From Escherichia coli (lineage in GTDB: Bacteria; Pseudomonadota; Gammaproteobacteria; Enterobacterales; Enterobacteriaceae): 64,000 bases of DNA. Location of the stretch: NCBI RefSeq assembly GCF_003334405.1, contig NZ_QOWM01000002.1; one strand, written 5' to 3'. Shown here piece by piece: positions 16,197 through 30,616 of this stretch. Every line of letters begins with the position of its first letter. Positions within the stretch are counted from its first letter, which is position 1. Below the pieces are notes generated by a model. The model had not been told where the DNA came from, did no database searches, and saw only the letters and a list, made by a program, of their open reading frames with translations. The position numbers and the translations under genes are program-made.

Positions 16197-17015
16197 TGCT
16201 ACGCGAGTGTGATTACAGCCAGGCGCTGCTGGAGCAGGTGAATCAGGCGATTAGCGATAAAACGCCGCTGGTGATTCAGGGCAGCAATAGCAAAGCCTTT
16301 TTAGGTCGCCCTGTCACCGGGCAAACGCTGGATGTTCGTTGTCATCGCGGCATTGTTAATTACGACCCGACCGAGCTGGTGATAACCGCGCGTGTCGGAA
16401 CGCCGCTGGTGACAATTGAAGCGGCGCTGGAAAGCGCGGGGCAAATGCTCCCCTGTGAGCCGCCGCATTATGGTGAAGAAGCCACCTGGGGCGGGATGGT
16501 CGCCTGCGGGCTGGCGGGGCCGCGTCGCCCGTGGAGCGGTTCGGTCCGCGATTTTGTCCTCGGCACGCGCATCATTACCGGCGCTGGAAAACATCTGCGT
16601 TTTGGTGGCGAAGTGATGAAAAACGTTGCCGGATACGATCTCTCACGGTTAATGGTCGGAAGCTACGGTTGTCTTGGCGTGCTCACTGAAATCTCAATGA
16701 AAGTGTTACCGCGACCGCGCGCCTCCCTGAGCCTGCGTCGGGAAATCAGCCTGCAAGAAGCCATGAGTGAAATCGCCGAGTGGCAACTCCAGCCATTACC
16801 CATTAGTGGCTTATGTTACTTCGACAATGCGTTGTGGATCCGCCTTGAGGGCGGCGAAGGATCGGTAAAAGCAGCGCGTGAACTGCTGGGTGGCGAAGAG
16901 GTTGCCGGTCAGTTCTGGCAGCAATTGCGTGAACAACAACTGCCGTTCTTCTCGTTACCAGGTACCTTATGGCGCATTTCATTACCCAGTGATGCGCCGA
17001 TGATGGATTCCCTGG
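16196..17015 (+). pseudogene. glcE: Glycolate oxidase subunit GlcE, 3'-truncated (~270 of 350 aa)
   Basis: ATG overlaps glcD stop; GlcE-like sequence stops near 17.0 kb, then frame reads antisense autotransporter DNA. Confidence 0.7.
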
Positions 17016-18360
17016 GCCACAATGTCAGCCCACAGGCCGGAGGCGTTGTGTATCAGATTCAGGTATCCGCCCAGGCTGCCGGCATCATCCCGGACCGTGC
17101 CGGCACGGGAGCCGTCATCATCCTTAACATCAACGGAAGAATGGCCAGCAGCACCATATACCCCCGCGGTCACAGACATACCGGCAACCTCTGTTCTGAG
17201 CAGGTCACCCTCCAGACGGACGAAGCCATAGCTGCCGCTGCTTTCCGGCGTGGCTCCACGGGCAATACCGCCGTTGTTATCGTGACCGAGATGACCGCCC
17301 TGAATGCTGAGACGGACGCTGTTATTTTCACCGCTTACACCGGTCTGATGGCTGCGGGAGCCTGCCAGAATCCGGTCATAGTCCATTGCCTGTGTCAGCA
17401 TGGAGGCATACAGGGGGACTTCTGCACGATAAGCATTTTCACTGCGCAGATACCAGCTCTCATCACTGTCCCGGTTGAGGGAGTAGTTAAAGGCACCGGC
17501 CTGCAGCTTATTCCCCTGGACAAAGGCCCCTTCCTCCGTGGTGGCACCGTTAATGGCTTCCACCACCTGAATACCCTTACCGCTGGTCGCCAGCCCCGAC
17601 GCACTGTTGCCGGCGTTCACCAGGTTCAGGATGGTTTTTCCGGTTGCCCTGCCACCGTCAATGACCAGTCTGTCAGCATTGTTCTGTGCCATATCCGGGC
17701 GTACACGCAGGCTGATGGTGCCATTCTGTCCGTTCAGGTTTTTCACTTTCAGGGTTGCCGGTACGAACTTCCCTGTGCGGGTGGAGGTGAAATGAATCTG
17801 TCCGGCATGGCTGAGGTCATCCACCACCGACTGCACCGTGGCGTTATCGGGAATATTCCAGGTGGCACCAGAGGCGAGAGTGACATTCGTGGGGTCAATG
17901 GCACCGTTCAGCACAGTGCTGCCGGTCAGCTTCAGGGCTGTACCGCGCTGAGCAATGACATCCGTGGTGACGGTACTGTCGTTCAGCGTCAGCGTGCCTT
18001 CATTCAGGTTGACGGCTTTCTGGGTGAGTGTGGTGTTGCTGACAGTGAGTGTGCCACTTCCTGATTTTTCCACGCTGCCGTTACCGGTGAGAGAGCCTCC
18101 CTGCAGGAGTGCATCGCCTTCACGGATGGTCAGGGTATCGTTGTTCACCGTCTTCCCGGAAAGGGTAAGTATGGCGCCGTTATTCAGCGTGGTGGTGCCC
18201 GCCAGTGTGCCGCCCCTGGCGGTGAACAGTCCGCCATTTACCGTGGTATCCGTGGCCGTATCACCGGCGTTCAGCGTGAATGAACTGCCTTTTTCCAGCA
18301 TCAGGGCATCCGCCTGACCGCCTCCGATACTGAATGCCTTTCCGTCGCTCCGGGTAACCC
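17015..18360 (-). pseudogene. Antigen 43-like autotransporter adhesin, internal fragment
   Basis: Gly/Thr/Asn-rich beta-helix repeats ('TLTQKAVNLNEGTLTLNDSTV...'); no signal peptide, no complete beta-barrel. Confidence 0.7.
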
Positions 18361-18428
18361 TTTCCGGTCAGCAGATAACGCGACTGACAGAATTACCCCC
18401 GGCATATAACCTGCAGCGCAGTGCGCAG

Positions 18429-18827
18429 TTGCTGCAGCAACTGATGGTACTTTTCCCCGACAATCCCCGTGTTCAGGAAATGGTGGATAACTGGCAGAAG
18501 AGCGTAAGGAGTCGTGCGCTCCCGGAAGAGGCGATGACGGGCTGGAATGAAGGCATGACCCGCTTACAGCAGCTGGCTGAACGCCTGAACCGTCTGGATG
18601 AACAGCGGGGAAAATACATGACGGTCAGTGAACTGAAAACGGAGGTGTTTGGCATCATGCAGGCTTTTAACTGGCATATCCCGGCGGAAGAGCAGTTACG
18701 TCGCTATGATGAAGCCCGTAACCAGAATGGCAGTGAACAGCAGCAAAAACAGGCTGAAATGGCACTGAATCAGCTGATTAATCGTTATCAGGTGGAACAC
18801 GCTGGCAAACCGGAGAGGCAGCCATGA
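18429..18827 (+). CDS. Hypothetical, probably the 3' part of a truncated island gene
   Basis: Frame stays open upstream to ~18330 with no good start context. Confidence 0.3.
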   Translation: MLQQLMVLFPDNPRVQEMVDNWQKSVRSRALPEEAMTGWNEGMTRLQQLAERLNRLDEQRGKYMTVSELKTEVFGIMQAFNWHIPAEEQLRRYDEARNQNGSEQQQKQAEMALNQLINRYQVEHAGKPERQP

Positions 18828-19065
18828 TGGCTGATAAAACATGGTAATGGAAAATAAACCCAAAAGAATGCGCACACCATGGGCAATCGAAGATATTCGC
18901 TACCTTGAAACGCATTATGGCGTGAAAAAAAACGCGAAATAGCGGCATATTGCCATGGGAGGGGATATGTCTGTCAGGCTGACTTGTTTTTCTCTTAAAT
19001 AGCCTTTATTTAAATTAGCCTTGGTATGAAATTAGAATCTATTAATTTTTATCAAAGGAGATTGT

Positions 19066-28731: not shown

Positions 28732-28917
28732 TTACTGAGAGGTCAGATCAACTTTCCAGGGCAACAGATCGCGTACCCGGTTTGCCGACCAGTCCTGCAT
28801 ATGATCTGTGACGTAATGCAGCAATTTTTCTGACTCCGCATTGTTCAGACGGCAGGTGCCGATCAGTGAGCACAATATGTGCTGCATATTTGCCGCCGCT
28901 GTCGGAACCTGCAGCAT
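28732..28917 (-). mobile_element. IS66-family transposase TnpC, second C-terminal fragment
   Basis: 'LIGTCRLNN...LLPW' tail; 'tgtaagcggctcgcc' IR-like motif downstream. Confidence 0.65.
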
Positions 28918-29080
28918 ATTACAGGTTATTACTCGATCCCGATGGATGATATTGGGGGATTTCTTTCCATGAAAATACGTAAGAGTCGGGAGTAATTTGT
29001 CTTACCATCAATCTTCTTCATCACGCCCAAAGAAAAATAGTCATTCAAAGTACCCCGGGCATTTTGCCCGGGGATTATTA

Positions 29081-30343
29081 CTATTTTAATGGATTGTTGA
29101 TCTTTGCATAATCAAACGGACTGATACATTTCTCTCTGTTCGCATTCAGAAAATCTGCCCACCACTGTAGCATCAGCCGGCGTTCTTCCAGATGTTCGGC
29201 TTTATGGATGTAAGCAGCGCGTACACCGTTACGTTCCTGATGGCTCATCTGACGTTCAACAGCATCGCGGGACCACAAACCTGATTCGATCAGCGCACTA
29301 CATGCCATCGCACGGAATCCATGGCCACAGACATCCTGGGTTGTGTCATACCCCATCACCCTCAGGGCTTTATTTACAGTATTTTCACTGATTGGTTTAC
29401 GCGGGTCATGTGCTCCCGTAAAGATCAGACCATTTTCACCAGCCCATGTCTGTAGTTCTGCCAGTATGGCTACAGCCTGTTTGCTGAGTGGCACAAGATG
29501 TGGTGTTCGCATCTTGGAGCCCCGGTGTGAGAATTTTACGCCAGGCAGAGGTTCGCGTTCGGCTGGAATAGTCCACATGGCATTGTCAATATCAATTTCA
29601 GACCAGCGGGCGTATCTGAGTTCACTGGAACGAATAAAAACCAGTAAATTCAGCATAACTGCCAGTCGGGTGACAGGCTGGCCTTTATAACCGTCAATAC
29701 GCGACAGAAGTTCAGGCAGGCGTGAAAGATCCAGTGCAGGGCGATGCTGGCGTTTTACCGTGGTCAATGCACCAGCCATATCCAGAGCCGGGTTATATCT
29801 GATGATGCCAGACTGTACGGCATAACGCATTACAGCAGATATTCTTTGCTGCAGACGACTGGCGATTTCATAAATTTGTTTAGCTTCTGCAGCACGAACA
29901 GGGATAAGCAGGTCCGGGGTACTGAGTGTTGTGATATCCCGGTTGCCGATAAAGGGGAAAACGTGTGTCTCGAGGCTTTTGAGTACTTTATCGCTGTGTG
30001 ATTGTGCCCATTGTTTATTACTGGCATGCCAGCGTCGTGCAATATGTTCAAAAGAGAGTTGTAAATCAGGGACTACTTTTTTAGCTCTTTTCTGTTCGCA
30101 AGGGTCAATCCCCTCCGAAATCAGTTTTCGGGCCTCATCCCGTTTTGTACGAGCTTCGGAGAGAGAAACTTCTGGATACACACCAAGTGCCAGAGTCTTC
30201 TCCTTACCCAGAATACGATAACGGAGACGCCAGTAACGGGAACCATTAGGATGAACCAGTAGGAACATGCCAGCCCCGTCAGTGAGTTTATAAGCCTTGT
30301 CAGTGGGCTTTGCAGCCCGGATTTTTGCGTCAGTCAGTGCCAT
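29081..30343 (-). CDS. P4-type tyrosine integrase of the pheV island
   Basis: Starts 'MALTDAKIRAAKPTDKAYKLTDGAGMFLLVHPNGSRYWRLRY'; lies ~200 bp from tRNA 3' end. Confidence 0.85.
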   Translation of the reverse strand: MALTDAKIRAAKPTDKAYKLTDGAGMFLLVHPNGSRYWRLRYRILGKEKTLALGVYPEVSLSEARTKRDEARKLISEGIDPCEQKRAKKVVPDLQLSFEHIARRWHASNKQWAQSHSDKVLKSLETHVFPFIGNRDITTLSTPDLLIPVRAAEAKQIYEIASRLQQRISAVMRYAVQSGIIRYNPALDMAGALTTVKRQHRPALDLSRLPELLSRIDGYKGQPVTRLAVMLNLLVFIRSSELRYARWSEIDIDNAMWTIPAEREPLPGVKFSHRGSKMRTPHLVPLSKQAVAILAELQTWAGENGLIFTGAHDPRKPISENTVNKALRVMGYDTTQDVCGHGFRAMACSALIESGLWSRDAVERQMSHQERNGVRAAYIHKAEHLEERRLMLQWWADFLNANREKCISPFDYAKINNPLK

Positions 30344-30540
30344 AGTATAGCCTTCTGAATGCGTTAAAGAGGGTACAAATTCTGTCGAACTGGGGTATAC
30401 CCGCAATTATACCCACACAATGGGGTTGATGTGGGGGGAATCTGGTTGAGTTCGGTAGAATTGATTTGTAGGTAGAACGCTTAAATTGTGGCGTTCTGAA
30501 ACGAAAAACGGACCTCCGTGGAGGTCCGTTGATATGAATT

Positions 30541-30616
30541 TGGTGCCCGGACTCGGAATCGAACCAAGGACACGGGGATTTTCAATCCCCTGCTCTACCG
30601 ACTGAGCTATCCGGGC
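30541..30616 (-). tRNA. pheV: tRNA-Phe (GAA anticodon)
   Basis: 76 nt, reverse complement matches E. coli tRNA-Phe with CCA end, as I recall it. Confidence 0.95.

Follow-up and report, generated by a model that had tools for sequence, protein, structure and literature searches.

A probable GI-pheV island of Escherichia coli, shortened by two microhomology deletions and carrying QatABCD and type I CBASS

The window analysed here, a 64,000-nucleotide stretch of Escherichia coli DNA (contig NZ_QOWM01000002.1 of assembly GCF_003334405.1), contains, between a truncated glcE gene and the tRNA-Phe gene pheV, a segment of foreign DNA with two anti-phage defence systems, QatABCD and a type I CBASS. 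This segment is very probably a genomic island of the GI-pheV group, equipped with a P4-type integrase and shrunk to 13.6 kb by two microhomology deletions. Elements of this kind have already been described, and the published GI-pheV model is applied here to one more strain; both defence systems are likewise members of catalogued families.

The tRNA gene that borders the island, a tRNA-Phe (GAA) at 30541-30616 on the minus strand (ARAGORN; Rfam tRNA model, 68 bits), is the only one that ARAGORN detects in the window. On one side it adjoins yqgA and speC, an arrangement shared with annotated E. coli genomes that identifies it as pheV. The 23 nt at its 3' end (30541-30563) form the core of attL; the foreign DNA begins directly 3' of the gene, at 30540, and extends down to the glcE junction at 17005, facing the yghD-glc side of the chromosome. 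An intact gene for a P4-type tyrosine integrase of 420 aa, intP4 (29081-30343, minus strand), lies 198 nt from the 3' end of the tRNA; the protein contains the Pfam domains Arm-DNA-bind_3, Phage_int_M and Phage_integrase and belongs to PHROG 1 (integrase), and its DNA is identical to that of the locus in strain BS74R-D, where RefSeq calls an intact integrase (WP_001218783.1). The segment is a mosaic, with four insertion sequence (IS) fragments, an intron remnant and deviating base composition: the GC content of single genes ranges from 33% to 58%, compared with a window mean of 50% and 52-57% in the flanking core genes. The fragment of the autotransporter gene Ag43 has 58% GC, an orphan gene 33% (25% at third codon positions, GC3), the qat genes 43-46%, the CBASS genes 42-46% and the integrase gene 49%.

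GI-pheV islands are found in 52% of complete E. coli genomes and are modular, with intP4 as the sole conserved gene (Nhu et al., PLoS Genet 2024, PMC11537424); flu and yee modules recur among them, and some types carry a type VI secretion system (T6SS) cluster. Of the flanking repeats of such islands, an attL within pheV and an attR that copies its last 19-23 nt, only attL is present: no attR was found in the 64-kb window with the full 23-mer, the form with a 1-nt deletion, the variant of uropathogenic E. coli or cores of 14-15 nt, mismatches being allowed and every published variant being covered up to 3 mismatches, and a search for a direct repeat of the pheV 3' end returned no second copy. 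This absence does not bar the segment from the GI-pheV group, because the literature accepts such islands; indeed, 14 of 41 reference islands are without attR and shorter, which the authors explain by deletions in which attR was lost and the island became stable (PMC11537424).

Much of this composition had been proposed by a first-pass annotation made from the letters alone. The P4-type integrase beside tRNA-Phe, the Qat system, the AT-rich orphan gene and the autotransporter debris that it listed are all recovered; the nucleotidyltransferase module proves to be a type I CBASS with a SMODS/AGS-C cyclase and a SLATT effector, and the profile of GC and GC3 by gene agrees with the mosaic composition that it described. 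Its suggestion that the distal repeat disappeared with a deletion into glcE is supported too: relatives keep attR beside yghD, and comparison with intact pheV islands shows the proposed loss from glcE nucleotide 815 into agn43. Two parts were overlooked, a remnant of a T6SS tagA-like gene and a remnant of a group II intron.

At its distal end the island abuts a truncated glcE, of which the first 814 of 1053 bp are retained (16196-17009, plus strand); many E. coli chromosomes, among them that of WP5-S17-ESBL-10, match the left flank of the window (1-17004) at 100% identity. There follows an internal fragment of agn43 (flu) on the minus strand (17005-18356), which is recognised by the NCBIfam model auto_Ag43, is 99.9% identical to agn43 and has lost 1190 bp on the 5' side and 578 bp on the 3' side; it matches the copy in the pheV island of strain QML220601, in the same orientation. 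Alignment to the intact glcE of strain WP5-S17-ESBL-10 (locus L002) and to the agn43 of QML220601 (locus L003) resolves the first junction: the match to glcE continues to 17009 while the match to agn43 starts at 17005, with a 5-nt microhomology, GGATT. At the second junction agn43 is matched up to 18356 and the tagA-like gene from 18352, again with a 5-nt microhomology, GGGTA. The tagA-like gene survives as a 3' remnant with the VasL domain (18352-18827, plus strand), truncated at residue ~296.

In the two relatives, glcD is followed by intact glcEFGBA, sslE, pppA and the genes of the type II secretion system beta (T2SS-beta) up to yghD, and then by attR and the island. The attR of both strains, TTCGATTCCGAGTCCGG-CACCA, is located between yghD and a DUF4942 gene; it is 22 nt long, corresponds to the pheV 3' end minus one G (TTCGATTCCGAGTCCGGCACCA) and is one of the forms given in Table 1 of PMC11537424. 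The island of QML220601 starts with a yee (CP4-44-like) module and agn43 and ends with Qat, CBASS, the integrase gene and pheV. The window is without everything from glcE nucleotide 815 to the inside of agn43, attR included. The core loss amounts to ~23.3 kb (compared with L002 2102-26036) and comprises the 3' end of glcE, glcF, glcG, glcB, glcA, sslE, pppA and the whole T2SS-beta operon from gspS2 to yghD; compared with an island like that of QML220601, a further 8.8 kb of the distal island are gone. From this gene content, the lineage is predicted to be unable to use glycolate via glcDEF/glcB and to be devoid of SslE secretion and of T2SS-beta, which may matter for strain phenotyping.

Neither junction occurs in any of 5,426 complete RefSeq E. 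coli genomes, a result that would be expected if both were assembly artefacts or chimeras. However, this explanation is refuted, and retains practically no probability, since four independent loci, one from an NCBI draft (GCA_024592615.1) and three from Logan runs (ERR4578754, SRR3823652 and ERR1948962), are exact substrings of the window and jointly span both junctions, each of which moreover shows its clean 5-nt microhomology. The occurrence of exact substrings in independent assemblies indicates that the configuration is real, rare and lineage-specific. The deletion also generates a 622-aa open reading frame (ORF) in which the truncated glcE is fused to antisense Ag43 sequence; this ORF is artefactual as a gene, and it is found exactly on seven contigs of other assemblies, while the ORF of the Ag43 fragment occurs on one further contig.

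The ancestor would have resembled islands that related strains still possess, with the order yghD, attR, a yee (CP4-44-like) module, a flu (agn43) module, further modules, a T6SS cluster ending with the tagA-like gene, a cargo slot, IS debris, intP4 and pheV. A first deletion would have fused glcE, at nucleotide 814, with the central part of agn43, taking with it ~23.3 kb of core genome, attR and the yee module, and a second one would have brought agn43 up against codon ~296 of the tagA-like gene; the cargo slot next to the integrase, with the orphan gene, QatABCD and the type I CBASS, would be the survivor. Some points weigh against this scheme. The ancestor is a composite, as no single sequenced genome combines the agn43 module with the tagA-orphan-Qat block inside one pheV island on this exact backbone; the order and the number of the deletions cannot be told, and one complex event is possible. 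Without attR the integrase would have no second site and precise excision would not be expected, and it is a reasonable inference from the sequence that the island is now fixed chromosomal DNA, in agreement with the published view of attR-less GI-pheV islands as stabilised by deletion (PMC11537424). Against such fixation, loss of the island by RecA-dependent or IS-mediated events is possible, as is rare excision by the intact integrase with a cryptic secondary site.

An island that is still mobile, through a cryptic secondary att site or by passive mobilisation with flanking DNA, is nevertheless improbable. The integrase ORF is intact, in DNA identical to loci for which RefSeq gives an intact integrase, and the presence of one cargo block in both pheV and pheU islands, with integrases 97.6% identical, indicates that such blocks moved before; however, no published variant of the pheV 3' end occurs within the 64 kb, no excisionase-like gene is present among the ORFs of 17-30.6 kb, and published data connect the loss of attR to stabilisation (PMC11537424). 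The sole partial match to the pheV end, a 13-nt identity in glcD (16133-16145), overlaps the tRNA by only 7 nt and was rejected as an att site, being at chance level. The segment might also be viewed as a degraded P4-like phage satellite with a surviving defence hotspot, instead of a classical genomic island; the integrase is of the P4 type (Arm-DNA-bind_3), and P4-like satellites do carry defence hotspots. This origin is very improbable: no ORF of 100 aa or longer in 17-30.6 kb is a gene for replication (alpha), capsid size (sid, psu, delta), immunity or regulation, every one of these ORFs is assigned elsewhere, and what the intact island relatives contain is a set of flu, yee, T6SS, gentisate-pathway and Dpd modules instead of satellite genes. 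A GI-pheV island reduced by deletions thus remains the preferred reading.

Read as such an island, the locus offers a case study, at nucleotide resolution, of the path from a tRNA island to a fixed chromosomal defence locus: the two microhomology deletions would have eliminated attR together with the virulence-type Ag43 and yee modules and 23 kb of core genes for metabolism and secretion, while the anti-phage cargo near the integrase survived. The pattern fits published models and involves no new principle; any novelty would be confined to the repeat-bearing orphan in a conserved cargo slot and to a recurrent breakpoint, both treated below. Short attR-less GI-pheV islands known from the literature include those of ATCC 8739 (19.3 kb) and 11368 (10 kb) and SpLE3/OI-122 of O157 Sakai (23.5 kb) (PMC11537424). 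The island of the window resembles them in the pheV site, intP4 beside the tRNA, mosaic modules separated by IS elements, a flu remnant, the lost attR and the small size. It differs from them in that the deletion runs 23.3 kb past the island into the glcE-yghD core, in a form present in no complete RefSeq genome, and in that its cargo is anti-phage defence, a subject that PMC11537424 does not discuss.

The pheU island of B2 strains such as S88 and ATCC 11775 contains the same block of truncated tagA, orphan, QatABCD and CBASS at 99.4-99.8% identity, in the same orientation to tRNA-Phe, and the S88 pheU integrase is 97.6% identical in amino acids to that of the window. However, this island occupies a different tRNA-Phe copy, the left neighbour of the block is a truncated TpsB/POTRA gene and not Ag43, an IS3 interrupts the IS66 debris, the block is separated from the integrase by about 15 kb of other genes, and the orphan gene has 58.8 copies of its repeat, against 6.8 in the window. 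The she island of Shigella flexneri, also at pheV, shares the P4-type integrase, an Ag43-like autotransporter module and boundaries at the pheV 3' end; differently from the island of the window, it has kept both repeats, is excisable and carries toxins and proteases rather than defence genes. The block from the tagA remnant to CBASS is common. In the same set of complete genomes, the region between qatD and the SLATT gene occurs, with an identity of 99% or higher, in 250 of the 5,426, within islands at both pheV and pheU, and the 12.2-kb segment next to pheV is covered to 80% or more in about 50 genomes (pheV islands).

QatABCD is encoded by a complete operon on the plus strand (20328-24887), formed by qatA (20328-22112), qatB (22112-22864), qatC (22846-24165) and qatD (24162-24887), and all four proteins give full-length PADLOC matches (QatA, 1133 bits; QatB, E=1e-129; QatC, E=1e-138; QatD, E=6e-97). 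QatC and QatD also exceed their NCBIfam cut-offs, and QatC matches QatC chains in the PDB at E=7e-62; QatA and QatB fall below the strict NCBIfam equivalog cut-offs, a point against the assignment, although the PADLOC models match them over the full length. The operon has the composition that defines the family, that is a KAP-family NTPase, QatB, a QueC-like QatC and a TatD-family QatD; QatB starts with MGTSQSSKGPGGGS... and its initial Met-Gly provides the N-terminal glycine motif. The roles expected of these proteins are drawn from knowledge of the family: a QatB-QatC complex, possibly with a modification at the N-terminus of QatB, would confer defence, while the KAP NTPase QatA and the TatD nuclease QatD would be accessory. 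Qat was first identified in E. coli NCTC9009 and protects against P1, lambda and T3, as cited in PMC13376578; defence against lambda-vir requires no more than QatB and QatC, and cannot do without the glycine at the N-terminus of QatB (bioRxiv 10.1101/2025.09.03.674047). The window system is like the known QatABCD system, with four genes in canonical order and full-length PADLOC matches, the KAP NTPase, the N-terminal Met-Gly of QatB, the QueC-like QatC and the TatD nuclease, and shows no notable difference in these features.

The second defence system consists of two genes on the minus strand. The first encodes an oligonucleotide cyclase of 442 aa (26023-27351) with a SMODS nucleotidyltransferase domain (residues 1-161, E=1e-39) and a C-terminal AGS_C sensor domain (residues 313-442) in Pfam; it matches the PADLOC cyclase model PDLC00796 over its full length (E=9e-177), carries the nucleotidyltransferase motif GS...DLD, shows a distant match to the PDB nucleotidyltransferase chains 6P8U and 6P82, and scores under both NCBIfam cyclase equivalog cut-offs. 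Only 8 nt downstream lies the gene for the effector (25440-26015), a SLATT protein of 191 aa with two transmembrane segments, identified by the PADLOC 2TM effector model PDLC00695 (E=2e-82) and by NCBIfam SLATT_6, over the curated cut-off. No Cap2/Cap3, HORMA/TRIP13 or QueC/OGG ancillary genes are found beside them, the neighbours being IS debris and the intron remnant; a cyclase and a SLATT effector without ancillary genes are therefore classified as type I CBASS. The pair is like other type I systems with SLATT effectors in being a two-gene operon of a SMODS cyclase and a 2TM SLATT protein, and differs from them in the AGS-C domain of its cyclase. By analogy with the scheme known for the family, in which a cyclase signal acts on a SLATT membrane effector and the infected cell dies, infection would induce the cyclase with its AGS-C sensor to produce a nucleotide signal, which would activate the SLATT effector and lead to death of the infected cell.

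The CBASS genes sit between IS66-family debris and the remains of a group II intron. The latter, located between qatD and the SLATT gene (~25135-25340, plus strand) and recognised by DNA similarity, is a 3'-terminal remnant with the end of ltrA and the domain V/VI region; it shares 96% identity with the 3' terminus of an ltrA intron from a Buttiauxella plasmid and 78-80% with introns of rhizobial and Burkholderia plasmids. A weak Rfam match to a domain-V-like hairpin is seen at 25184-25216; an Rfam scan of 16.5-31.5 kb at E<=0.1 returned the tRNA alone and did not detect the intron remnant.

Upstream of qatA lies the AT-rich orphan gene (19066-20196, plus strand), which codes for a protein of 376 aa with no match in Pfam, NCBIfam or PHROG and no sequence relative in the PDB; a match to multicystatin was rejected as spurious. 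In the protein, a conserved Cys/His cluster resembling a zinc finger is accompanied by a core of ~190 aa, by a hypervariable spacer formed by the repeat described next and by a short C-terminal tail of basic character; homologues were found only in Enterobacterales and Aliivibrio. The gene contains a perfectly pure, in-frame repeat of a 9-bp unit, TTGCTGAGG, encoding (AEV)n, whose length over four E. coli loci spans 7 to 59 copies: 6.8 in the window (20048-20108), 38.8 in L001 (13697-14045), 43.8 in L006 (10694-11087) and 58.8 in L008 (14590-15118). In Citrobacter 9.8 copies of the identical unit are present (L017 8089-8176). The Aliivibrio homologue (29% identity) ends with ...AEVAEV, that of Xenorhabdus has a CCAGAG repeat encoding (PE)n in place of (AEV)n, and that of Yersinia shows a short PEPEP stretch at the same position. 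Most homologues in the databases are marked as partial, and the one contig checked, from a short-read assembly (L013), stops within the array.

The sole database link of the orphan is a weak PADLOC match of 80 residues to PD-Lambda-4_B (Avs8B; E=3.7e-6), a protein that has been reported to be dispensable for Avs8 defence. The gene is not assigned to PD-Lambda-4/Avs8, since there is no adjacent STAND NTPase and the B-protein match stands by itself. Elsewhere, the orphan is found next to an OLD nuclease, a type I restriction-modification system and a tyrosine-recombinase element. The best guess, held with low confidence, is that it represents a candidate defence gene, possibly a third cargo gene of the island. 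A bolder proposal, that the orphan is an undescribed single-gene immunity or anti-mobile-element factor, whose activity the length of the repeat could tune or diversify, and that, separately, the tagA-like gene contains a site-specific breakage hot spot, is regarded as unlikely.

The tagA-like gene is found intact in BS74R-D as an ORF of 455 aa with ImpA_N and VasL domains. For locus L001 (11112-12476) RefSeq gives three partial pseudogenes (ImpA_N, hypothetical/POTRA and VasL), which are really one uninterrupted ORF of 455 codons. In Citrobacter portucalensis the T6SS genes are followed by an intact ImpA_N+VasL gene, then by genes for an OLD-family nuclease, the orphan homologue and a P4-type integrase, and finally by yqgA and speC; what looks like debris in the window is therefore the closing gene of a T6SS cluster carried by the island, and the stretch from tagA to the integrase a conserved cargo slot. 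The 3' flank of the tagA-like gene behaves as a slot for defence cargo beside the pheV/pheU integrase. Behind ImpA_N+VasL the cargo varies between genomes: an AAA ATPase together with a 3'-5' exonuclease in one case, an OLD-family nuclease in another, and elsewhere the orphan with Qat and CBASS (L007 1-6615; L017 3495-7991); in E. coli C5 (L007) the tagA-like gene occurs twice in tandem, with different cargo behind each copy.

The 5' breakpoint of the truncated gene, at GG-N-TAACCC, is shared to within 3-5 nt by four left contexts, at 18352-18356 in the window, 12001 in L001, ~8997-9002 in L006 and 5001 in L010; the bordering sequence TAACCCTTTCCGGTCAGCAG is present in about 1,000 E. coli genomes. 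The contexts are the native ORF (at least 471 genomes), the truncated TpsB/POTRA gene (186 genomes), Ag43, in the lineage of the window only, and, in strain p11A, an unrelated 137-nt stretch behind IS66 debris. This pattern suggests a site-specific breakage hot spot at GGNTAACCC; chance would hardly place independent truncations of a 1.4-kb gene within the same 3-5 nt. As a component of the unlikely proposal above, the hot spot would imply at least three independent truncations, each leaving precisely the VasL domain in place ahead of the defence cargo slot. The left flanks share no homology, and a hidden relationship between them was rejected as the cause of the common breakpoint. A BstEII-type site (GGTNACC) was also considered; the idea is post hoc, and a second such site, at 27930, lends it no independent support, being simply the start of the ISCro1-like terminal repeat.

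The IS debris between CBASS and the integrase comprises four pieces, for which the first-pass annotation had given the series IS66, IS4, IS21 and IS66; the IS66 and IS4 labels stand, while the piece called IS21 is of the IS66 type. Starting from the integrase side, a frameshifted tnpC pseudogene fragment of the IS66 family lies at about 28702-28912 (minus strand; 88% match to an IS66-family tnpC, in accordance with the RefSeq annotation of the identical L001 locus) and is followed by a 3'-end fragment of IS4 (28295-28701, minus strand), 99.3% identical to the K-12 IS4 insG and matched by the C-terminal end of NCBIfam transpos_IS4_1. The relabelled piece (27927-28297, plus strand) is the 5' end of an ISCro1-like IS66-family element, with the left end and the N-terminal half of the accessory TnpA; it corresponds to positions 1-90 of 190 of NF038385, IS66_access_TnpA ('IS66-like element accessory protein TnpA'; E=6e-29), and matches at about 90% a tnpA-tnpB-ISCro1 transposase element of plasmid pS9. 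The last piece (27440-27929, minus strand) is a 3' fragment of an IS66-family tnpC with its terminal inverted repeat, covering positions 262-385 of 387 of NCBIfam transpos_IS66; it matches ISEc23 at about 86%, and its end reads ...ACGCTTAC.

A direct repeat of 53 nt (25078-25130 and 28925-28977, 83% identity) brackets CBASS and the IS debris. An internal att site was rejected as its explanation, because it has no similarity to pheV and sits in the IS66-family and intron debris that flanks CBASS; its copies are probably IS66-family remnants on both sides, and they hint that CBASS came, or was shuffled, with IS66 elements. Outside the island, a stretch of 34% GC is seen at ~11800-12600, in the yghO-side variable region upstream of glcC.

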